This document shows positions 2,505-31,500 of a stretch of DNA of 36,876 nt, piece after piece. The DNA comes from a virus (taxonomy: Duplodnaviria; Caudoviricetes): positions 1 through 36,876 of the IMG/VR virus record IMGVR_UViG_3300017768_000024, one strand, 5' to 3'. A model generated the notes under the pieces. That model had not been told where the DNA came from, ran no database searches, and saw nothing but the letters and a program-made list of their open reading frames with translations. Both the position numbers and the translations under genes were made by a program. Each line of letters begins with the position of its first letter. The stretch's first letter is position 1.

Positions 2505-2577
2505 GGGGCTGTAGCTCAGTTGGGAGAGCGCCGCACTTGCACTGCGGAGGTCGCAGGTTCGATTCCTGTCAGCTCCA
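2505..2577 (+). tRNA. tRNA-Ala(UGC)
   Basis: Cloverleaf GGGGCTG/CAGCTCC with G3:U70; anticodon arm CCGCA-CT TGC AC-TGCGG; TTCGATT T-loop; no encoded CCA. Confidence 0.97.
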
Positions 2578-2587
2578 CAAGATTGTT

Positions 2588-3262
2588 ATGATAGAAATAA
2601 ATAAATATAAAAATTACGATGAGATGTCTAAGTGGGTAGTAGAACAAATCAGAGATGCTATCAACTTTAATTCTGTAACAAAACATTTTACATTAGGATT
2701 AGCAACTGGTTCTACACCACTTGGTATATATAAATACATGCGTGATGAGACTTGGGATTCTAAAAAGGTATATACATTTAATCTTGATGAGTATGCCGAC
2801 TTACCATACAACCATCCACAATCATATGAACACTTCATGGAAGAAAACTTATTTGCATATAAACAATTTAGATATAGTTATTTCCCTGAGAATGAAAGGT
2901 ATGATGACATCATTAAGAACAATGGTGGTATAGATATACAAATACTTGGTATTGGTACTAACGGACATATAGCATTTAATGAACCAGGCTCACCAAGAGA
3001 TTCTCTTACAAGGAAAGTGGAGTTAACAGAAAATACACGTAAGGATAACAGTAGGTTCTTTGATATTATTGATGATGTCCCAACTCATGCTTGGACTATG
3101 GGGATAGAAAGTATTATGAGAGCTAAACAAATTTATCTGTTAGCTAATGGTAAACACAAGAAAGATATTTTAGAGAAAGCATGTTATGGTGATATCACTT
3201 CAGACATACCGGCTTCCTATTTACAAGAACACAATAATATAGAGGTATTGTACTGTGATTGA
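2588..3262 (+). CDS. nagB: glucosamine-6-phosphate deaminase
   Basis: GLATGSTP, FNLDEY, DIQILGIGTNGHIAFNEPG, TMGI and PASYLQEH motifs. Start moved to ATG 2588 because 2537 lies inside the tRNA. Confidence 0.95.
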   Translation: MIEINKYKNYDEMSKWVVEQIRDAINFNSVTKHFTLGLATGSTPLGIYKYMRDETWDSKKVYTFNLDEYADLPYNHPQSYEHFMEENLFAYKQFRYSYFPENERYDDIIKNNGGIDIQILGIGTNGHIAFNEPGSPRDSLTRKVELTENTRKDNSRFFDIIDDVPTHAWTMGIESIMRAKQIYLLANGKHKKDILEKACYGDITSDIPASYLQEHNNIEVLYCD

Positions 3263-3752
3263 CAAAATAATGATTGTTGCTCATCCTGATGATGAGGCGT
3301 TATTTGGTGGGGCTGAATTACTATCCCATCCAGATGAATATAAAGTTGTAGTATTAGATGAGTATCAGAATGATATAAGAAGAAGAGAGTTCTTAGATAG
3401 TATGAGGTTTATCGGTATTCACGAATACGAACATTGGACTGGCTTCAAAGGTGCTGAGGATTATTATAGGGAAAAACTTATATATGAACTACTGAGAGTT
3501 TTAAGGGAAAGAAAATATACCAAGATAGTAACACACAATACCGATGGAGAATATGGACACCCGCGACATAGAGCTTGTCACGATGTATTGTCACACCTTA
3601 GACCTGAGAAACTATGGGTGTTTGGTAGGGGTGAAAAATTAGATGACGATATGATAAAAAGAAAAAGTGATTTATTAAAGGTATATAAATCACAAGTAGA
3701 AGTTTTAGATTGGTTTAATTGGGAATATGAAACGATAAGAAAATTTCAATAA
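3255..3752 (+). CDS. PIG-L/LmbE-family N-acetylglucosaminyl deacetylase
   Basis: VAHPDDE and THN..GEYGHPRH zinc motifs; GTG start with GAGG RBS, overlapping the nagB end. Confidence 0.88.
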   Translation: MIDKIMIVAHPDDEALFGGAELLSHPDEYKVVVLDEYQNDIRRREFLDSMRFIGIHEYEHWTGFKGAEDYYREKLIYELLRVLRERKYTKIVTHNTDGEYGHPRHRACHDVLSHLRPEKLWVFGRGEKLDDDMIKRKSDLLKVYKSQVEVLDWFNWEYETIRKFQ

Positions 3753-3833: not shown

Positions 3834-3906
3834 GCCATCTTAGCTCAGTTGGTAGAGCAGTTCATTAGTAATGAACAGGTCGTCAGTTCGAATCTGACAG
3901 ATGGCT
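3834..3906 (+). tRNA. tRNA-Thr(AGU)
   Basis: GCCATCT/AGATGGC acceptor stem; GTTCA-TT AGT AA-TGAAC anticodon arm (anticodon 3867-3869); GTCAG-TTCGAAT-CTGAC T arm. Confidence 0.93.
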
Positions 3907-3914
3907 CAGAAAAC

Positions 3915-7283: not shown

Positions 7284-9272
7284 ATGGCAAGAACAACAAC
7301 TAAAAAAAATAAAGTTAGAAGTATAAATTATCTAAACAAAGATTTTGATGATTTCAGAAATAGTTTAGTGGAATACGCTAAAACATACTTTCCAAACACC
7401 TATAATGATTTTAACGAAGCTTCTCCTGGTATGATGTTTATTGAGATGGCATCATATGTCGGTGATGTTTTATCTTACTATTTAGATAGTCAATTTAGAG
7501 AATCACTATTACCCTTTGCTGAAGAGAAAAGAAATGTTTACAATATAGCACAATCGTTAGGATATAAACCTCGTATAACTTCACCATCTAACGTGGTTCT
7601 TGATGTATTTCAAACCGTACCCGCCTTAAATGGTAAACCTGATTACAGATATGCCCTAACAATCAAAGCGGGAGCTAGGGTAAATTCATCAACTAATGGA
7701 ACAACGTTTAGAACCTTAGATGATGTTAATTTTAAATTTGATACCTTATCAGACCAAAGGATAACAACAATATTTGAAAATGATGGTGATACACCTACTA
7801 AGTTTTTATTAAAGAAAAGAGTTAAAGCAGAGAGTGGTGAGATTTCTAAAGAATTCTTTTCATTCGGTTCTGCACAAAAATACACACAAATTAAATTAGA
7901 AAATCCTGATGTGATACAAATATTATCATGCACAGATAGTGATGGTAATAAATGGTATGAGGTTGATTCATTAGCTCGTGATACTATATTTGAAGATATT
8001 GAAAATAATTCTACTAATGACCCAACATCGGTTCTTAATAGAGATACGTCACCACATATTTTAAAATTAAAAAAGACATCTCGTAGATTTACAACTTTTA
8101 TTAATGAAAATGATGAAACAATTTTAAGATTTGGTGCAGGGGTGTCTGATAATCCTGATGAAGAGATTATACCTAATCCTGATAGTGTTGGTTCTAATTT
8201 ACCTGGTAGTCCAAGTTTCTTAACACAAGCGTTTGACCCAAGTAATTTCTTAAAGACAAAGACTTTTGGTTTAGCACCAGCGAACACAACGCTAACTATT
8301 GAATACGCTTTCGGTGGTGGAGTTGATGATAACGTTAATAGTGGAGACATTACATTTAAAGGTGGTCAAACTTTTGAAATAGATAACCAAAATTTATCGT
8401 CAACTTTAGTTCAGGCATCTAAAGACTCTCTTGCATTTACTAATCCAAAACCAGCTACAGGTGGAGGTGGTGGTGAAACTGTTCGTGACGTTAGAGAAAA
8501 CGCATTAGCATATTATCAAGCACAACAAAGAGCGGTTACAAAAGAGGACTATATTGTTAGAGCATATTCTTTACCAGCCAAATTTGGTAACATAGCTAAA
8601 GTTCACTTAGTACAAGATGACCAATTAAACAAACCAACAGATGAGCTGGATAGAAAGGTAACTACTGACGATGTTAATAATGGGTTGACAATTAAACAAT
8701 TGACTGCAAGAGTTCCTAACCCATTAGCTATGAATATGTATACTCTTGGATATAATTCTAATAATAATTTAGTACCACTATCCACTACAGTTAAAGAAAA
8801 TTTAAAAACTTACTTGTCACAATATAGGTTAGTTACCGATGCAATCAATATAAAAGACGCTTACATAATTGATGTGGCTATAGATTTTGCAATATTGACA
8901 AAAGTCGGATTCAATAAAAATGATATTCTCTTAAGATGTATCGATAGAGTAAAAGATTACTTTGATGTCACGAAATGGCAGATAGGTCAACCTATAATAC
9001 TTTCAGATATAGTTTATGAATTATCTTTGGTTGATGGAGTTTCTAGTGTTGTTAATCCATTGGTTGATGGTCAACGAGGTAAACAACAAATAGTAATAAC
9101 AAATAAATTCAAACCATCCGATGGTTATTCTGGCAATGCTTTTGATGTTGAGTCAGCGACTATAAATGGTGTAATTTACACAGCGTTAGACCCAAGTATT
9201 TTTCAAGTTCGTTTTCCCGACACAGACATAAAAGGAACTGTAGTTGGAGACACATTAGGTATTACGGAGTAA
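7284..9272 (+). CDS. baseplate wedge subunit (T4 gp6 / baseplate J-like)
   Basis: DFDDFRNSL...DFNEASPG, AQSLGYKP, FGAGV, ATGGGGGET, QRAVTKEDY motifs; follows gp25. Confidence 0.9.
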   Translation: MARTTTKKNKVRSINYLNKDFDDFRNSLVEYAKTYFPNTYNDFNEASPGMMFIEMASYVGDVLSYYLDSQFRESLLPFAEEKRNVYNIAQSLGYKPRITSPSNVVLDVFQTVPALNGKPDYRYALTIKAGARVNSSTNGTTFRTLDDVNFKFDTLSDQRITTIFENDGDTPTKFLLKKRVKAESGEISKEFFSFGSAQKYTQIKLENPDVIQILSCTDSDGNKWYEVDSLARDTIFEDIENNSTNDPTSVLNRDTSPHILKLKKTSRRFTTFINENDETILRFGAGVSDNPDEEIIPNPDSVGSNLPGSPSFLTQAFDPSNFLKTKTFGLAPANTTLTIEYAFGGGVDDNVNSGDITFKGGQTFEIDNQNLSSTLVQASKDSLAFTNPKPATGGGGGETVRDVRENALAYYQAQQRAVTKEDYIVRAYSLPAKFGNIAKVHLVQDDQLNKPTDELDRKVTTDDVNNGLTIKQLTARVPNPLAMNMYTLGYNSNNNLVPLSTTVKENLKTYLSQYRLVTDAINIKDAYIIDVAIDFAILTKVGFNKNDILLRCIDRVKDYFDVTKWQIGQPIILSDIVYELSLVDGVSSVVNPLVDGQRGKQQIVITNKFKPSDGYSGNAFDVESATINGVIYTALDPSIFQVRFPDTDIKGTVVGDTLGITE

Positions 9273-19590: not shown

Positions 19591-22503
19591 TTGCGTAAAT
19601 TTTTATTGACTCTGTTAATGGTTATGGGTTTTGCATACTCTCAGACACCAATTATCAGACTCATGCAATCGAGAACATATAAGACACCAAAGTTTTGGTG
19701 GAGAGACCAAGTGACTCAAGACTTGAGAACATACTTGGCTGACGATACCTCAACCCCTGCCTATAAGAATAATAACTTTGACGCTTGGAGAGATTCTGTA
19801 ATGACAGTAGCCGTCACACTTGATGACAATGGTGCTAGTGTCACGGCCTTTCGTTTAGATTTAGTGTTCGATAATGATTTATTTACTTGGGACAATACAA
19901 CAACTACAGGACACGACTCGACGCGGGTTGAAAAGGGAGCTTATATCGCTGGTTGGACTGAGGGTGATAATGGAGAGAATGGTCATCATTATTCATATGA
20001 GGTAACTTGGTATAACAACGTTGGTTATACAGATGGTATAGCTAGTGCTGGTAGTGAGAAATCAGCTAGTGATAGTAGATATGATTGGTTGAGAATAACT
20101 ATGGTATCACACAACGGAAGTACACATACTTTCGGTAATGGTGATGGTAATCAAACAGAATTATTAAAATTACATTTTAAAGTGAATGACGTAGCTGATA
20201 ATTTTAATGCTAGAAGTTTTAGGGTAGCTACCGAGTATGAGAATAATACTGGGTATTATACTTACGTTACTAATGGTAATTACGCATCAGCGTATAAGGT
20301 TTATATTGATGGTAACTATGGAACTGAATCAACTAACCTTGATGGGGCTAGAGGTGATATAACACTACACCCAAAATTATTGGATGTTGAAGGGTACTTT
20401 AGATATGCTGGTGGTCATGGCAGAGCGGCTGGTGAATCGTGGAACACACAAGCGGAAAATACATATCCGTATTGGAAGATTAAGTTTGAGTTAGATAGAA
20501 ATGAAGCTAACTTTAACCCAAGAATAACAAATTGGTATAACTTAGAAGATATTGCTAATGATGCTAATACAGCTGACGAGGATGGAAGTGACGATGTTAT
20601 CGGTGACCACGCCTCCACATTTAGATTTAACAAAAAAGCTCTCAATGGAAACACCGCATCAACTGGTGATGCTACTTTACCTGGTGAGGGATTCTTAGGT
20701 ATATCATATTATGATTCTACTTACACCGATGATAAGGGATATTATAATATTCAGTTACCAAGAAACAATAGATATCGTATGTCATTCTGGCCACCAGATG
20801 GGTCTGACGGAATACCTGGTCATACGATTCTTGAGTTGGATAGGGATGACATTACAACTGTAGCTGATGCTATAAAATCGTTTAACTTTCAATCAAGTAA
20901 ACATAAAAATTATAATGCAGGTGGCACACGTATAGATACCTTGACTGCTATAGAATACTTGATAGGTGATGTCGATGGTGATGATAAGTTTTTCTTAAAT
21001 GACACATACATATTGTGGTCATACGTTTCAGGTATTATGAGTAACTATACGCACCACAACGGAAACTCTTATGAGGATTGGTCTACAATAGATAACTTTA
21101 ATGGTAACAATACAAGTTACACATACTATCAAACTGTTAATGGTCAGTCAAGACCACAGAAATATGAGTTCACGGTTTATTGGGATGAGACCACGATAGC
21201 AGAAAAGTCGAGACTTGACAGAACAAATGAGAATCCAGCTTACTTTGTAAACAATAGTGCTGGTTGGGTGGATAGTTTGAAAGCTCCAATGACTGTAACA
21301 AAGGCTCTTGTAGATGCTCAAAAAGCATTAGATGTATCCGGTAACTTTGTTGGTCAAATAGAAATATTAAACCCTCTAATGAATGATGCACAAACTGGTT
21401 TAGATACATTACATTTAGTATTGGGTGCTGGATATTCTGAATGGCACAAGGATAGATTATATGAACGAAATAATCAGAAGGGTAATCCTGACTATCTGAT
21501 GCCTGATATTGGATATTACTTTACTGGTGATGTAAATACTACAGGTACAAAAGTTACAGAGAGTGGTGGTGACGGATATCAAAATGATATAGCTTCTAAT
21601 ATAATGTATCATAGATGGAAAGGTGTTAGTGCACCAGGTCATCATGTGAATAAGTTTAATCCTACCGCTGGTTCTTTGAACAAAACAAAAATAGACTCAA
21701 GTGTTCAACCTGATGTTTATCTATCGTTACCTGCAGACTCTACTGTTAGGGTACAATCTGGTAATCAAATCGAAGTACCATTAACAATCATACCAAATGA
21801 TAATGTTATTGTTGCTGGTTTTGAGTTTGAGGTAGAGTTTGATACTAGAGCGTTGAAGTTTATTGATATGAAAACCGACGTATTACCTGGCCCTTGGATG
21901 ACCTATGTAAACGTACATGACCCAATAGCTGGATGGCAAAAGGTTTCATTTGGTGGTATCGATTACTCACCTAACAATGCACCAGAGACGTATCATATAA
22001 CAGCAGAAATGATAGGTCTTAAATTATTATTTGAGGCAGAGTTTCCTGAAGCAGAAGAATTATACACAGCACCTATTAAGTTTGTTGGTAAGAGTGCGGC
22101 GTCGACACCAAATGGTGAGGACTTGATTGTACACAAGAGTGATGGGTATGTCGAGGTATGGAATAAGTATTGGGCATTTGGAGGTTCAAAGCCAGATAGT
22201 GAAAGTATAACATACAATTATCCGAATCCATTTAAAGAAAATACAGTATTTCAATTTTACTTAAGTGAATCACAGAACGTAAAGTTGTACATTTTAAACT
22301 CAATGGGTCAGAGAATCGGAACGTTATTAAACGAGTATGTATTTGAAGGATTACATACCTTTGACTTTACAAATGAACCAAGCATTTGGATACCTGAGAT
22401 GAGTATTTATGAAAAACATCAAAAGTTAGAACCTGGTGTTTATATTTTTGTATTACAAACGGAAAAGAGATTGAAAGCTAATAAATTTACGGTGGTAAAA
22501 TAA
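19591..22503 (+). CDS. secreted protein with cohesin-like and dockerin-like domains and T9SS-type (Por) C-terminal sorting domain
   Basis: TTG start with AGGAGA RBS; signal peptide; two cohesin-like regions (VTAFRLDLVFD...LLKLHFKV; IEVPL...VAGFEFEVEFD); GDVDGDDKFFLND loop; NYPNPF...VKLYILNSMGQ...PGVYIFVL...KFTVVK tail. Confidence 0.8.
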   Translation: MRKFLLTLLMVMGFAYSQTPIIRLMQSRTYKTPKFWWRDQVTQDLRTYLADDTSTPAYKNNNFDAWRDSVMTVAVTLDDNGASVTAFRLDLVFDNDLFTWDNTTTTGHDSTRVEKGAYIAGWTEGDNGENGHHYSYEVTWYNNVGYTDGIASAGSEKSASDSRYDWLRITMVSHNGSTHTFGNGDGNQTELLKLHFKVNDVADNFNARSFRVATEYENNTGYYTYVTNGNYASAYKVYIDGNYGTESTNLDGARGDITLHPKLLDVEGYFRYAGGHGRAAGESWNTQAENTYPYWKIKFELDRNEANFNPRITNWYNLEDIANDANTADEDGSDDVIGDHASTFRFNKKALNGNTASTGDATLPGEGFLGISYYDSTYTDDKGYYNIQLPRNNRYRMSFWPPDGSDGIPGHTILELDRDDITTVADAIKSFNFQSSKHKNYNAGGTRIDTLTAIEYLIGDVDGDDKFFLNDTYILWSYVSGIMSNYTHHNGNSYEDWSTIDNFNGNNTSYTYYQTVNGQSRPQKYEFTVYWDETTIAEKSRLDRTNENPAYFVNNSAGWVDSLKAPMTVTKALVDAQKALDVSGNFVGQIEILNPLMNDAQTGLDTLHLVLGAGYSEWHKDRLYERNNQKGNPDYLMPDIGYYFTGDVNTTGTKVTESGGDGYQNDIASNIMYHRWKGVSAPGHHVNKFNPTAGSLNKTKIDSSVQPDVYLSLPADSTVRVQSGNQIEVPLTIIPNDNVIVAGFEFEVEFDTRALKFIDMKTDVLPGPWMTYVNVHDPIAGWQKVSFGGIDYSPNNAPETYHITAEMIGLKLLFEAEFPEAEELYTAPIKFVGKSAASTPNGEDLIVHKSDGYVEVWNKYWAFGGSKPDSESITYNYPNPFKENTVFQFYLSESQNVKLYILNSMGQRIGTLLNEYVFEGLHTFDFTNEPSIWIPEMSIYEKHQKLEPGVYIFVLQTEKRLKANKFTVVK

Positions 22504-22610
22504 TGGATGAATGGCAATTCTTTTTAGCATTAGCTATAATGTTACCAGCATTATATTGGACATTGAAGTTCATCGTGTGGTTTGCTGAAAAGGTAGAGAG
22601 AAAAAAATGA
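22503..22610 (+). CDS. 35-aa single-TM protein (below ORF-track cutoff)
   Basis: MDEWQFFLALAIMLPALYWTLKFIVWFAEKVERKK; TAATG and ATGA overlaps with both neighbours. Confidence 0.7.
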   Translation: MDEWQFFLALAIMLPALYWTLKFIVWFAEKVERKK

Positions 22611-23455
22611 AAAAAATATTCTTAACATTACTTCTTTTTAGTAATCTATTTGCACAAGCAAATAATTTACTTACGATATCTCCGTCTGCGCACACGAGTT
22701 CGATTGGAAACGTAACGTTACCAATGATGAGTCCTGCTAGAAATCATATTGATAATGATAAATTTACTTTTACGAGGGTCAATTGGTTGGGTAATATTGT
22801 CGATGATATGAACTATATGCACTTTAATTTGGCTAGAGGTTCATTCGATGTATATGCATTAATATTCAACTACGGACAACAATTAGAAACAGACATAAGT
22901 GGTGTGGTTACAGGTAGGTTTTCACCTATGAGTTCAGTATGGGGTGTCAGCTGGGGAACTGTGATAAAAGGATATAACGTCGGTGTAACTGGTAAAGTTT
23001 TATCACATGATTTATATACACAAAAAACACACGGAACCGCATTTGATGTAGCAACATACCTACCAAAAGTTTATAAAGATTTAGATGTAGATGTGGCTAT
23101 AAAAAACTTTGGATTTGCTCCAACATTCGGTACGTATAAAACAAAATTACCAACCAGCTTGAATGTAGCCATGACATATCCATACAAACAATGGATGTTC
23201 TATGAACAACATAATATTTATAATGGACACGTAACATCTGGTATGGGTGCTTCATATAAATACGAGGTAAAAAACCAGGCAACAATTTTAGCTAAAGCTG
23301 GATATTATTCAGATAAGTCGCATGAGTTATCATATCCTACATTTGGTGTGGATTTAAAGTATGACAAATACTTTATAGGTATGAGTTATATTTATGGAGA
23401 CCAGACGTTACCAGTAAGTAACACATTTAGATTAACAATAAACTTGGAGTTGTAA
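22607..23455 (+). CDS. PorV/PorQ-family outer-membrane beta-barrel
   Basis: Signal peptide; LLTISPSAHTSSIG, NWL, G.AFDV, IKNFG, KLPTSLNV, AGY and L.NTFRLTI motifs match the PorV layout; alternating beta-strands. Confidence 0.7.
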   Translation: MKKIFLTLLLFSNLFAQANNLLTISPSAHTSSIGNVTLPMMSPARNHIDNDKFTFTRVNWLGNIVDDMNYMHFNLARGSFDVYALIFNYGQQLETDISGVVTGRFSPMSSVWGVSWGTVIKGYNVGVTGKVLSHDLYTQKTHGTAFDVATYLPKVYKDLDVDVAIKNFGFAPTFGTYKTKLPTSLNVAMTYPYKQWMFYEQHNIYNGHVTSGMGASYKYEVKNQATILAKAGYYSDKSHELSYPTFGVDLKYDKYFIGMSYIYGDQTLPVSNTFRLTINLEL

Positions 23456-27916: not shown

Positions 27917-28632
27917 AAAAAGAATTTGTTATAGGTGTATTGTTAAACATAGCAACTGTTCTTGCAGTTGTTGGTGTCCGTTATTATTATGCTAAACAAG
28001 AAATGGATTTTTTAAAAGAAGATTCAGTTAGACAAGAACAACTTATCCAAGAAAATGAATACACTATAGATACTCTTAAAACTGAAGTGGTGAAATTAAA
28101 CAACCACGGAGCAAAACTTGTAAATGAAATACAAGATATAAAAACAAAACATTACGAAAGAGTTCGTTGGGAAAAAGAATACGAACAAAGAATTGATAAC
28201 CTAAGAGAATCTCTTGATTCAGTAAAATTTGAGATATCTTTAGGTGAGAGTGGTTTAATACCATTTGAAAAAGAATTTGGTGTACAAGATAATTATTTAA
28301 GAATCTTCGGTCGTACAGGCGTGAAGATAAAAGATAATAAAATCTTAGACTCTGAAACTGATTTATCTTTTGATGGTGAAATAAATATAGGAGCACCTGA
28401 AATAGAACAGATAGGTAAACATGAGTTCAAGGCTGTACTACCAAGTAAATCCTTTGATGGATTGAGACTTACGGGTGGAGAAAGTAAACCTATAAGTCTA
28501 AAACCACCAAGAAACCAAATATCTTTTGGGCCAATGGTTGGAGTTACTTATAACGCGGTTACAGGATTGACAGAACCTATATGGGGTTTTGGAATAACTT
28601 ACAACTTAGTAAAACTTTGGGATTGGAAATAA
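27913..28632 (+). CDS. membrane-anchored coiled-coil protein, possible spanin
   Basis: AAGGAG RBS; N-terminal TM, coiled coil, C-terminal amphipathic beta-hairpin FGPMVGVTY...WGFGITYNL. Confidence 0.5.
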   Translation: MKKEFVIGVLLNIATVLAVVGVRYYYAKQEMDFLKEDSVRQEQLIQENEYTIDTLKTEVVKLNNHGAKLVNEIQDIKTKHYERVRWEKEYEQRIDNLRESLDSVKFEISLGESGLIPFEKEFGVQDNYLRIFGRTGVKIKDNKILDSETDLSFDGEINIGAPEIEQIGKHEFKAVLPSKSFDGLRLTGGESKPISLKPPRNQISFGPMVGVTYNAVTGLTEPIWGFGITYNLVKLWDWK

Positions 28633-28633
28633 A

Positions 28634-28876
28634 ATGGCTTTTAAAGATATATTTAAAGATGAAAATGAGTTTAATGAAAAAACAATCATTGGATTTTTAT
28701 CATTCACTATCATGGGAATGTATAGTGCAGTGGATTTAATAACAGGTTATATGGGTTTAGATTTACCTATTAATGACTTTGTTTATAATAGTTTTCTATA
28801 TATTACTTTAGGGTGTTTTGGTATCGCTGGTGTTGAAAAAGTAATGGGTGGAAATAAAGAAAATGGTAAAAGTTGA
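28634..28876 (+). CDS. two-TM small membrane protein, possible holin
   Basis: 80 aa, two hydrophobic segments, charged termini. Confidence 0.5.
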   Translation: MAFKDIFKDENEFNEKTIIGFLSFTIMGMYSAVDLITGYMGLDLPINDFVYNSFLYITLGCFGIAGVEKVMGGNKENGKS

Positions 28877-28894
28877 TAATTATAGGTAGAGAAT

Positions 28895-29047
28895 ATGCCG
28901 AACAGAAATGCGAAAGATAGAAAAAGAAAAAGAATTTTGACTAACAAAAAATTGGCTAGAGAAGGTAGAACAGCTAAACAATATAAAAAATGGTTAGAAA
29001 AAAATGAATCAAAAAACAAAACAGGTATTGGAACTTATAGAAGATAA
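28895..29047 (+). CDS. 50-aa highly basic protein
   Basis: MPNRNAKDRKRKRILTNKKLAREGRTAKQYKKWLEKNESKNKTGIGTYRR; AGGT RBS. Confidence 0.65.
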   Translation: MPNRNAKDRKRKRILTNKKLAREGRTAKQYKKWLEKNESKNKTGIGTYRR

Positions 29048-29366
29048 TAAGTGTATCTTCTGTGGAACTTACACAAATGAAGACCTACGAAAGTGGTTTG
29101 GTAAAGGTGGTGCAGGTGGTTCTGGCGGTGGAGGTTGGGATAGGTATTCCTCTACTGGTAAAAAACTAGGAAAATGTGGTGATGGTGAAGAGGGTGGAGC
29201 GTATGCAGCCTGTCTATCAAAGTCAAAGGCTAGAAAACTTGGTAAAAAGGGAATCGCAGCATTTGTCAATAGAAAAAGAAAAGCACAGAAAAAAGGTGGT
29301 GACCCCAAAAAAGGTGGTGAAAGAAGTAAAGGGCAAAAGACCATCAAGGTAAAAACAGGTGCATAG
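29004..29366 (+). CDS. small basic Gly/Cys-containing protein
   Basis: NEDLRKWFG...W...GKCG...YAACL...RKRKA. Confidence 0.75.
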   Translation: MNQKTKQVLELIEDNKCIFCGTYTNEDLRKWFGKGGAGGSGGGGWDRYSSTGKKLGKCGDGEEGGAYAACLSKSKARKLGKKGIAAFVNRKRKAQKKGGDPKKGGERSKGQKTIKVKTGA

Positions 29367-29523
29367 ATATCTCGTAGAAAAATTTGATTGTGGCTGTCTT
29401 CACTTATATGAAGTTGTTAAAGAAAAAAAGTGGAGTCAAAAATATAAGAAAAGTATTGATTGTAACAACCCAAAAGGTTTTAGTCAAAAAGCACATTGTG
29501 CAGGAAGAAAAAAACGAAAATAG
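29359..29523 (+). CDS. 54-aa basic Cys-containing protein
   Basis: GTG start with AAGGT RBS; ...KEKKWSQKYKKSIDCNNPKGFSQKAHCAGRKKRK, a module I recall from T4-like aquatic phages. Confidence 0.7.
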   Translation: MHRYLVEKFDCGCLHLYEVVKEKKWSQKYKKSIDCNNPKGFSQKAHCAGRKKRK

Positions 29524-29531
29524 GTAATAAT

Positions 29532-29984
29532 ATGGATACTTATAATAAATCAGTTCAACATCAATGATTCCACCACGCGACTTGGGGGTCTCCTAAGCGA
29601 AAAAATGAGGGTGTCGGTAAAGTAACTTGGCACTCATTAAGTGAAGATGGTAAAGTTGAAATTGTAGATATACAATTCGGTAATAAACTTTACAAAAATG
29701 TAAGTGTAAGTAGACTTAATCCAACTGATGAGTCGTCACACTCACATCCAAGAAAAAAGAGAAAAAAAATGAAAGTTGATGAACTAAAACAAATAGTAAA
29801 AGAGGCTTTTATAGAGGAAAAGTTTGAGATGTTCTTTGAAAAGAATGTTCCAACAAATCCATCAAAATGGTCTTACTATAAATCTCAAGCTAAAAAGAAG
29901 TTTGATGTATATCCATCAGCTTACGCAAACGCTTGGGCAGCTAAACAATACAAAGCCGCTGGTGGTGGTTGGAAAAAAGGTTAA
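29532..29984 (+). CDS. candidate selenoprotein (150 aa, in-frame UGA at codon 12); includes track ORF 29769..29984 as its C-terminal domain
   Basis: AGGT RBS + ATG; MDTYNKSVQHQ*FHHATWGSPKRKNEGVGKVTWHSLSEDGKVEIVDIQFG...SHSHPRKKRKK-MKVDELKQ...YPSAYANAWAAKQYKAAGGGWKKG; single TGA at 29565-29567. Confidence 0.65.
29578..29599 (+). promoter_or_regulatory. putative bacterial-type SECIS hairpin
   Basis: CG-A-CTTGGG-GGTCT-CCTAAG-CG, beginning at +11 after the UGA, with apical GGUCU at +20..+24. Confidence 0.6.
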
Positions 29985-29986
29985 GC

Positions 29987-30412
29987 ATGAACGAAAAACG
30001 AGGAACTTGTTGGGTTGGATATCAACAGATAGGCATGAAAGAAAAGAATGGTAAGATGGTGCCTAATTGTGTTAAAGAAGTTTACGATATCTATTGGGAA
30101 AATCAAAATGAAAGTTGTGGATACACTTTCGAGTTTGAAAAACAACCAATGGAAGAGGCTGAATACCAAGGTCGTAAAGTTAAGCTCAATAAAATAATGC
30201 AAGGTGATGCTAAGAAATTTAAAGTTTACGTTAAAAACGATAAAGGTAATGTCGTGAAAGTAAACTTTGGACAAGGTGGTGATGCCAAGGGTGGTACGAT
30301 GAGAATACGTAAATCAAATCCAAAAGCTCGTAAATCGTTCAGAGCAAGACACAATTGTGATAATCCAGGCCCAAAGTATAAGGCGAGATATTGGGCTTGT
30401 AGAACTTGGTAA
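29987..30412 (+). CDS. basic multi-module Cys-containing protein
   Basis: Start ATG 29987; modules CWVGY...VPNCVKE and EAEYQGRKV...ARKSFRARHNCD...ARYWACRTW. Confidence 0.8.
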   Translation: MNEKRGTCWVGYQQIGMKEKNGKMVPNCVKEVYDIYWENQNESCGYTFEFEKQPMEEAEYQGRKVKLNKIMQGDAKKFKVYVKNDKGNVVKVNFGQGGDAKGGTMRIRKSNPKARKSFRARHNCDNPGPKYKARYWACRTW

Positions 30413-30413
30413 A

Positions 30414-30635
30414 ATGATAAAAGTTAGATTCACTAGCAGTGGTCAACAAATATCAAAAGTTTGTAACACTTGTAAATGTCACATTGAAGATTTAACAATA
30501 GAAGATATTATTGTTAAACCTAAATGGGCTAACTCAAGTAATATGACTTTCAAATATAGTAACGGAGAAGACATCACAAGGACAGAGTTACCTAGTGATT
30601 TAAGTACCTGTACTTGTGAGCATTGTAATGATTAA
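30414..30635 (+). CDS. small Cys-rich putative metal-binding protein
   Basis: Start ATG 30414; CNTCKCH and CTCEHC clusters. Confidence 0.7.
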   Translation: MIKVRFTSSGQQISKVCNTCKCHIEDLTIEDIIVKPKWANSSNMTFKYSNGEDITRTELPSDLSTCTCEHCND

Positions 30636-31500
30636 ATTAGCACAAATAAACGAACAAAAAGATTCCAAACACGCAGCAGGTATTGCCTACGTTGTGAATG
30701 ACGAGTTATTGTGTGTTCAAAGTACGAGTGGTAGATGGGGTATCCCAAAGGGTCATCGACATATTGATGAAACACCTGAAGAAGGAGCTCATAGAGAGTT
30801 TACTGAAGAAACCCAAATTATACTAAATCGTGATATTGAATTATCCCATGTTGCTAAGAAGAACAATGGTGGAGACTTTCACGTTTTTATATGCAAGGGT
30901 GATAAAAAAATAAATGCACATATAAATCATGAACATATGGCTTGGGGTTATTATAACACAATGAATCTTCCACAACCATTTGACGATAGAGTATTAGGAA
31001 TATTAGATAATTTATATGAAGCCTCTACAACTGCAAATATAAAAGGACTAAAGGGTGCAACAGGTTTTATCAAACCAGAAGAGTGGCCATCTAAACTAAA
31101 ATCGCTTAAAAAATCAATCACAGACACTACAGGTTATTTACTATTAGAAAGAATAGACTACTTGGATACAGCAGAAAGATTAGTTAAAAAATATGGACTC
31201 AAATCTAAAATAAAATTTGCACGTGGTAAAGACATGGCGGATTATAATTGGGTTACCGATACGATAAATTTAAGACCATCATATCCTACAGTCAAACAAT
31301 TTTTAATTACAGTATTACATGAAATCAAACATGCTCTTGATAGAAAAAAGATGGGTGCAAAAAAATACGAAAAAGCATACTCCATGGCAGGTGAGATTGC
31401 CGTCCAAAAAGGTGGTGATTTTCACGATGATAACAAGTTTGAGGAGATTGCCGAAAAGTGGGGTAGACGTGAGTATGCTAAGTTGAAAAATAAATTGTAA
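30628..31500 (+). CDS. NUDIX hydrolase - HExxH metallopeptidase-like fusion
   Basis: Nudix box PKGHRHIDETPEEGAHREFTEETQI; C-terminal TVLHEIKHALD...FEEIAE. Confidence 0.8.
   Translation: MIKLAQINEQKDSKHAAGIAYVVNDELLCVQSTSGRWGIPKGHRHIDETPEEGAHREFTEETQIILNRDIELSHVAKKNNGGDFHVFICKGDKKINAHINHEHMAWGYYNTMNLPQPFDDRVLGILDNLYEASTTANIKGLKGATGFIKPEEWPSKLKSLKKSITDTTGYLLLERIDYLDTAERLVKKYGLKSKIKFARGKDMADYNWVTDTINLRPSYPTVKQFLITVLHEIKHALDRKKMGAKKYEKAYSMAGEIAVQKGGDFHDDNKFEEIAEKWGRREYAKLKNKL

Follow-up and report, generated by a model that had tools for sequence, protein, structure and literature searches.

A predicted selenoprotein gene with an in-frame UGA and a SECIS-like hairpin in a marine phage

The locus and its read-through frame

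The window, by which we mean the whole stretch of 36,876 nucleotides that was analysed, is a 36.9-kb piece of a large marine myovirus-like phage, with genes that include baseplate wedge genes, a primase, an SbcC-like nuclease, PhoH and three tRNAs. A near-identical record is 44.9 kb long and estimated to be 28% complete, and the runs that best contained near-window sequence were seawater and viral metagenomes. The best cultured matches of the baseplate protein at 7284-9272 were from Microcystis phage Mel-JY01 (47%) and Flavobacterium phage immuto (41.5%). Adjoining PhoH, and beside a PIG-L deacetylase, is a phage-borne NagB glucosamine-6-phosphate deaminase (window 2537-3752), relatives of which are abundant in metagenomes. 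A tRNA-Thr at 3834-3907 carries the anticodon AGT, and threonine tRNAs with A34 are unusual in bacteria.

On the plus strand we found a read-through gene of 150 codons (29532..29984), predicted to encode a selenoprotein, that starts at ATG 29532 and ends with the TAA at 29982-29984. As a preliminary description of this DNA had proposed, it forms a single frame broken solely by a TGA at codon 12 (29565..29567; H-Q-*-F-H-H) and open from there to the TAA; this codon is aligned to the invariant Cys of homologues and is predicted to specify selenocysteine (Sec). The ribosome-binding site expected before the ATG is present as a Shine-Dalgarno-like AGGT at 29522..29525, 6 nt 5' of the ATG and overlapping the TAG stop of the upstream ORF. 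Between the TGA and 29769 no ORF starts in frame with ATG, GTG or TTG, as originally described, and the ATG at 29769 itself is without a Shine-Dalgarno-like motif, while codon 1 was ATG in 62 of 64 close alleles. The frame comprises a conserved domain of about 68 residues, predicted to be an SH3/KOW-like beta barrel (29547..29753), then an internal leader-like segment (29769..29840) and a swappable small basic C-terminal module (29841..29981). Two ORFs of small basic modules lie upstream (29004..29523) and another lies downstream (29987..30412; PHROG 7595 and others, of unknown function), all on the same strand.

Contigs from all four of the runs checked for sequencing support span codon 12 and show no other letter there, which excluded an assembly error. 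Two RNA libraries contain short contigs across codon 12, which is not a demonstration of transcription.

Selection on the frame was evaluated in the 64 close alleles, which were gathered without a motif filter and for which raw pN/pS values are given. Purifying selection was evident both before and after the TGA, with pN/pS of 0.16 in codons 2-11, 0.005 in codons 13-15 directly after the TGA, 0.21 in the hairpin region and 0.30 in codons 23-72. Codons 13-72 were free of further in-frame stops, His10 before the TGA and His14/His15 after it were invariant, and the stretch from the TGA to His34 was free of start codons in 47 of the 64 alleles. Other lineages have the TGA deep within long frames, for example at codon 166 of 244. 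The conserved stop, the selection downstream of it, the few internal starts and the deep position of the TGA in other lineages together indicated that translation must cross the TGA.

TGA, cysteine and the hairpin at codon 12

A private nonsense mutation would leave relatives with a sense codon at this site, and this was not what we observed. All 32 viral loci retrieved with the downstream 69 residues as query (61-100% identity) had TGA, as had all of the best 80 of 172 metagenome matches. An alignment search added four loci, two close and two at 32% identity, all with TGA. A DNA-pattern scan that used the central part of the domain and ignored codon 12, with codons counted by eye, returned 28 TGA, 90 Cys and 1 truncated copy among 119 of about 280 viral loci. 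Over all loci together, and counting duplicates, H-x-Cys or H-x-TGA was read in 312 of the 313 anchored copies. The 180 distinct DNA alleles divided into 87 with TGA and 93 with Cys (80 TGT, 13 TGC), so that the Cys/TGA alternation anticipated for codon 12 proved strict, and none had TGG, the Trp codon that would have spoken against it. Each of the 64 close alleles kept TGA, as did lineages at 26-36% identity. With the site masked, a tree of 74 representatives needed 2 changes between TGA and Cys, and 1 was also compatible; the five TGA lineages thus point to long retention rather than five independent gains. Members of the family occur in marine viral data from many studies.

The Cys form was reached through weak tblastn matches, which led to T4-like cyanophage proteins, and the H-x-C...H...H pattern that the preliminary description had given for such phages turned out to be real, as in SShM2_183 of phage S-ShM2 and PHM1_163 of P-HM1. 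Homology of the TGA and Cys forms was supported by hhalign (95.5%, E 1.3e-8) and by a profile search of the fetched loci, and Cys-form domains are 25-43% identical to the window domain. Foldseek gave 10 BFVD matches at E ≤0.001 (1e-4 to 1e-3) with TM 0.72-0.78, mostly to cyanophage proteins. A profile search of 1.84 billion representatives returned 1185 clusters at E ≤0.001, and in the 166 domain rows from the best 150 of these clusters the site was Cys in 140, Trp in 9 and a gap in 17; for 13 of the 17 gap rows the record begins at a Met after the site.

Among database homologues, 43 of 49 had Trp at the site. Three of these proteins (P0010, P0021 and P0033) are exact code-4 translations of TGA loci, two of them running through the true terminal TGA, and the Trp entries are best explained as code-4 gene calls, with a basis in DNA for these three. 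Judged from these comparisons, databases appear to hold the family as code-4 Trp read-throughs or as fragments beginning after the TGA, which is a systematic annotation error. One two-member database cluster (P0019, P0365) has Arg at the Sec position, possibly as a point variant.

Directly after the TGA lies a SECIS-like hairpin at 29578..29599, with a core stem of 29581-29586 paired to 29592-29597 and the loop GGTCT at 29587-29591 (+20..+24), which folds as initially described. Its conspicuousness stood in part: position and conservation exceed chance, but stability is ordinary and the outer bulged C-G pairs are unconserved. The 66-nt hairpin region folds at -13.6 kcal/mol (z = 0.07), and 103 of 200 shuffles were equally good. 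As the window hairpin alone is unremarkable, the case for a SECIS rests on comparison. Eight of 1572 window TGA triplets passed the hairpin geometry test, and the codon-12 TGA was the only one of these preceded by a Met and followed by 25 or more open codons.

The hairpin was restricted to TGA alleles. A fixed-position test (loop +18 to +22, G at +20/+21, at least 4 pairs), whose settings were chosen after the TGA alleles had been seen, was passed by 39 of 40 TGA contexts and by none of 74 Cys contexts of the same GC content. Synonymous shuffling gave p ≤0.05 for 35 of 39 alleles and >0.05 for the other 4, with p of about 0.04-0.05 for the window-type allele. In a position-free test at -3 kcal/mol, a hairpin was found in 64/64 TGA and 23/74 Cys contexts, the latter at scattered positions, and at -5 kcal/mol in 53/64 and 7/74, respectively. 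The best loop started at +19, +20 or +21 in all 64 TGA contexts, although starts from +16 to +37 were allowed; bacterial SECIS elements have 16-37 nt from the UGA to the apical loop according to the available part of PMC10778597. In the close alleles Gly19 was GGG in 64/64 and Thr17 was ACT in 63/64; GGG makes up 38 of 774 (5%) window Gly codons, and Gly27, Gly29 and Gly40 are mostly GGT. Twelve distinct genes contain an internal TGA and also end in TGA; in these the hairpin followed 12/12 internal and 0/12 terminal codons, and the same test on E. coli K-12 was passed by fdhF, fdnG and fdoG, with loops at +19, +20 and +20.

Covariation analysis, which had been proposed as a check, showed that the hairpin co-varies across five sequence lineages. 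Four lineages (25 sequences) share one pairing axis and have two-sided changes at 5/7 pairs, and the fifth (15 sequences) has them at 3/7 pairs, with its axis 1.5 nt upstream, as in fdhF. The covariation score was matched by 0/500 shuffles in both sets, in a control that ignores relatedness; related sequences inflate the hairpin counts and the shuffle control alike. Slid registers were at most 57% paired, compared with 89-93% in the true register.

An Rfam scan of the window returned tRNAs only, with no SECIS match at E up to 5. This null result was expected, because the same models missed 113 genomes of a Sec-using genus according to the available text of the Actinomarina preprint (10.64898/2026.04.03.716425).

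The predicted barrel domain and its modular context

His10, Sec12, Gly29, His34, Leu36 and Gly40 did not vary among the 74 representatives, at least 90% of which also kept His70 and His72. An AlphaFold2 model from 74 sequences, with Cys replacing Sec, gave a five-strand all-beta fold (pLDDT 76.9, pTM 0.57), for which the best solved-structure match was a NusG KOW domain (Z 5.5, rmsd 3.3, 54 aligned), tied with SH3 and Tudor domains. Foldseek against the PDB yielded nothing at E ≤0.001 (none <0.1), a PDB sequence search nothing below E 0.4, and Pfam and NCBIfam no family matching the domain.

From the model we infer that His-x-Sec in the first strand would lie beside His-x-His in the last strand of such a barrel. 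The window protein has no other Cys, which makes a metal site likelier than a CxxU redox pair, and the domain may well be a small SH3-like barrel with a Se/His metal site, a reading we favour modestly. Such a site would be formed by His10-x-Sec12, His70-x-His72 and His34. A thioredoxin-like redox selenoprotein of the CxxU/UxxC type was considered and set aside, given the lack of a resolving Cys, the all-beta model and the absence of a Pfam match. A scan of GTDB genomes with the TGA-lineage alignment and narrow patterns returned a single locus, where 11 residues matched within a stop-rich frame; this was taken as a chance match and not as a cellular relative.

In close alleles the domain carrying codon 12 is followed by differing small basic modules, and some Cys proteins carry the domain twice. 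The C-terminal module of the window protein, which has a weak match to DUF5872 (E 0.006, below cut-off), is carried by 17 of 56 complete close alleles, and in 5 close alleles the first module of the upstream ORFs sits fused behind the domain. Segments like this leader stand at the head of many small, unrelated ORFs in related phages. The pattern occurs once in the window, at residue 80 of the predicted selenoprotein, and in other lineages the domain follows a leader that also begins many unrelated ORFs. Clusters of unrelated ORFs sharing the leader were seen in contigs G028 (L375-L379, about 20 ORFs), G012, G027 and G029. No family was found in a PHROG scan of 14 leader-bearing ORFs, and none of the window's genes was identified as a head protease.

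Internal head proteins of T4 have a capsid-targeting leader and are processed by the head protease. The window family resembles them in its small basic modules, in a leader ending in Glu that occurs on unrelated ORFs and in the swapping of modules at joints. By this analogy, the window protein could be a leader-bearing modular cargo that enters the phage head and is cleaved into its modules, a proposal we consider evenly balanced. The available text of a paper on cyanophage virion proteomes (PMC10665884) does not identify the domain.

Decoding, host and known systems

We consider it very probable, on comparison of alleles and hairpins, that this phage gene encodes a selenoprotein decoded by host SelB and tRNA-Sec. 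Host SelB with Sec-tRNA would, with the same high confidence, bind the G-containing loop and insert Sec at codon 12; failing this insertion, only 11 residues would be made before release factor 2 ended translation, with loss of the whole 150-residue protein.

Hairpin-dependent read-through could instead insert Cys or Trp at the UGA, by way of a near-cognate tRNA or a specialised Cys tRNA/elongation-factor pair. The host may belong to a group in which Sec is rare, as the T9SS-type genes of the window and the Flavobacterium phage among its best baseplate matches could suggest, and Cys would be tolerated since homologues have it. Such a weak stop should, however, often revert to TGT or TGC, and the close alleles keep TGA without exception; the base after the TGA varies (T 64, A 17, C 3, G 3), which gives no shared leaky context; the loop register agrees with that of Sec genes in E. 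coli; and neither the window nor the 10 loci examined for it showed a tRNA with a UCA anticodon. We regard this alternative as improbable.

It is quite improbable that the UGA is the true stop of a leader peptide, with a hairpin that regulates or terminates before a separate downstream gene. The upstream part does have just 11 codons in the window lineage, and gene callers start several relatives at a Met after the TGA. Against this, the TGA lies far inside long frames elsewhere in the family (codon 166 of 244, as above), the histidines flanking it are invariant with pN/pS falling to its lowest value just behind it, and most close alleles offer no start before His34; the hairpin also has no U-tract, and 28600-30700 contains no terminator-like site.

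More improbable still is a genome-wide reading of UGA as Trp or Gly (code 4 or 25) in the phage or its host. The Trp found in most database homologues and in 9 of the 166 library rows would fit such a code, but three of these Trp proteins are code-4 translations of TGA loci, TGG is absent from the 180 alleles and the aligned residue is Cys. In the window, 40 code-11 ORFs, including frames of 1423 and 1049 codons, cover 93% of the sequence and there are 120 TGG codons; reading through four TGA stops adds 0-26 codons, and related contigs are similar. The use of TGA as a normal stop at 3262, 22610, 24605, 26838, 27916 and 28876 also held, and the hairpin follows 0 of these 6 triplets. A pseudogene or sequencing error, which an in-frame stop in a single contig would normally suggest, has a negligible likelihood given 87 distinct TGA alleles, no extra stops, purifying selection and four agreeing runs.

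For Sec decoding, the machinery would have to come from phage or host. Searches of phage fragments at most 68% complete found tRNA-Sec in 0/50, selD in 0/23 and the SelB wing in 0/5, which suggests that the host likely supplies the Sec machinery. Sub-threshold tRNA-Sec matches in 10 loci turned out to be Leu, Arg and Cys tRNAs. A search for a second Sec gene, covering the window and nine related contigs, three of them over part of their length, gave no convincing candidate; contigs G028 and G029 had a few weak ones.

At 19591-23455 the window encodes a protein of 970 aa that combines a cohesin domain with a T9SS sorting domain (TIGR04183, scoring above cut-off); it adjoins a PorQ/PorV-like barrel, and the two suggest a host in the FCB group. 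To our knowledge, Flavobacteria do not use Shine-Dalgarno motifs, and a host among them is opposed by the Shine-Dalgarno-like motif at 21/35 window genes (3/35 at control positions). Such a host would also argue against the Sec reading, because Sec is rare there: both Sec columns are positive in 0 of 27 Flavobacterium rows, and in 5 of about 219 rows in the Bacteroidetes/Chlorobi part, of Table S1 of Peng et al. (PMC5029168). For SAR406, both Sec columns are positive in 5 of 16 listed partial genomes, and SAR406/Marinisomatota is our guess for a candidate host. Two listed rows for Prochlorococcus marinus have no Sec trait, which fits the Cys form in its phages. Cyanophages, with hosts listed as lacking the Sec trait, have Cys at this site of the domain.

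The arrangement resembles that of E. coli fdhF, fdnG and fdoG, in which an in-frame UGA is followed immediately by a short stem with a G-containing loop. The position given earlier for GGTCT in fdhF, +19..+23, was confirmed in NC_000913.3 and compares with +20..+24 in the window; loops start at +19/+20 in E. coli and at +19 to +21 here, so that the register is within one base of fdhF/fdnG. Unlike the E. coli genes, the present gene is viral, would encode a non-enzyme-like barrel of about 68 residues with no cellular relative found, and conserves only the upper stem. The Cys form of T4-like cyanophages (SShM2_183 in T4-GC 1138 and PHM1_163 in T4-GC 534; PHROG 11470, 22379 and 764) shares the H-x-C...H...H-x-H pattern, the predicted fold and the placement of the module inside longer basic proteins, but has a Cys codon, no in-register hairpin (none in the 74 Cys contexts) and usually a second Cys before H-[ST]-L. 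The label 'cytidyltransferase' on some Cys-form records looks inherited from a neighbouring or fused gene.

Poxviruses also have viral genes decoded by host Sec machinery, the glutathione peroxidases of molluscum contagiosum and fowlpox viruses, with the fowlpox SECIS in the coding sequence (available part of PMC8310308). These differ in being captured host enzymes of eukaryotic viruses with eukaryotic SECIS elements, whereas the window family was found only in phage-like sequence. Basilisk-like Bacillus phages are likewise tied to Sec biology through a putative tRNA-Sec, a tRNAscan prediction of unknown significance, and the available part of PMC6145125 describes no selenoprotein; the window family, by contrast, has a protein gene with a SECIS-like element and no tRNA-Sec in the 50 fragments searched. 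In the open-access literature that was searched we found no phage selenoprotein, and the available portions of 10.1101/2022.07.06.499078, PMC13449736, PMC8318568 and PMC10665884 contain nothing on phage Sec proteins. Marine selenoprotein families include few or no viral sequences in the available text of PMC9402790. The published viral selenoproteins that we found are host enzymes captured by poxviruses, none being from a bacterial virus. What is new here is most likely the use of a known mechanism, Sec decoding, in a phage gene whose family has no cellular member that we found.

Taken jointly, a phage-born Sec family, a Se/His metal barrel in marine phage heads and a choice of Sec or Cys according to host ability form a picture that we put forward tentatively. 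If true, there would be a selenium-containing virion protein, phage particles would be a selenium sink and the codon would mark infected hosts. Which codon stands at position 12 also narrows the assignment of hosts. A natural experiment is offered by this small domain, which has Cys in cyanophages that can be cultured and predicted Sec plus SECIS in uncultured phages. It makes testable the advantage of Sec over Cys in a non-redox, likely metal-binding site, the dependence of phage yield on host selenium and the SECIS shapes read by marine SelB. One allele (L210:554-589, minus strand) has its loop G at +19 and not at +20/+21; it fails the fixed-position test, keeps a strong stem and is a natural variant bearing on SelB specificity.
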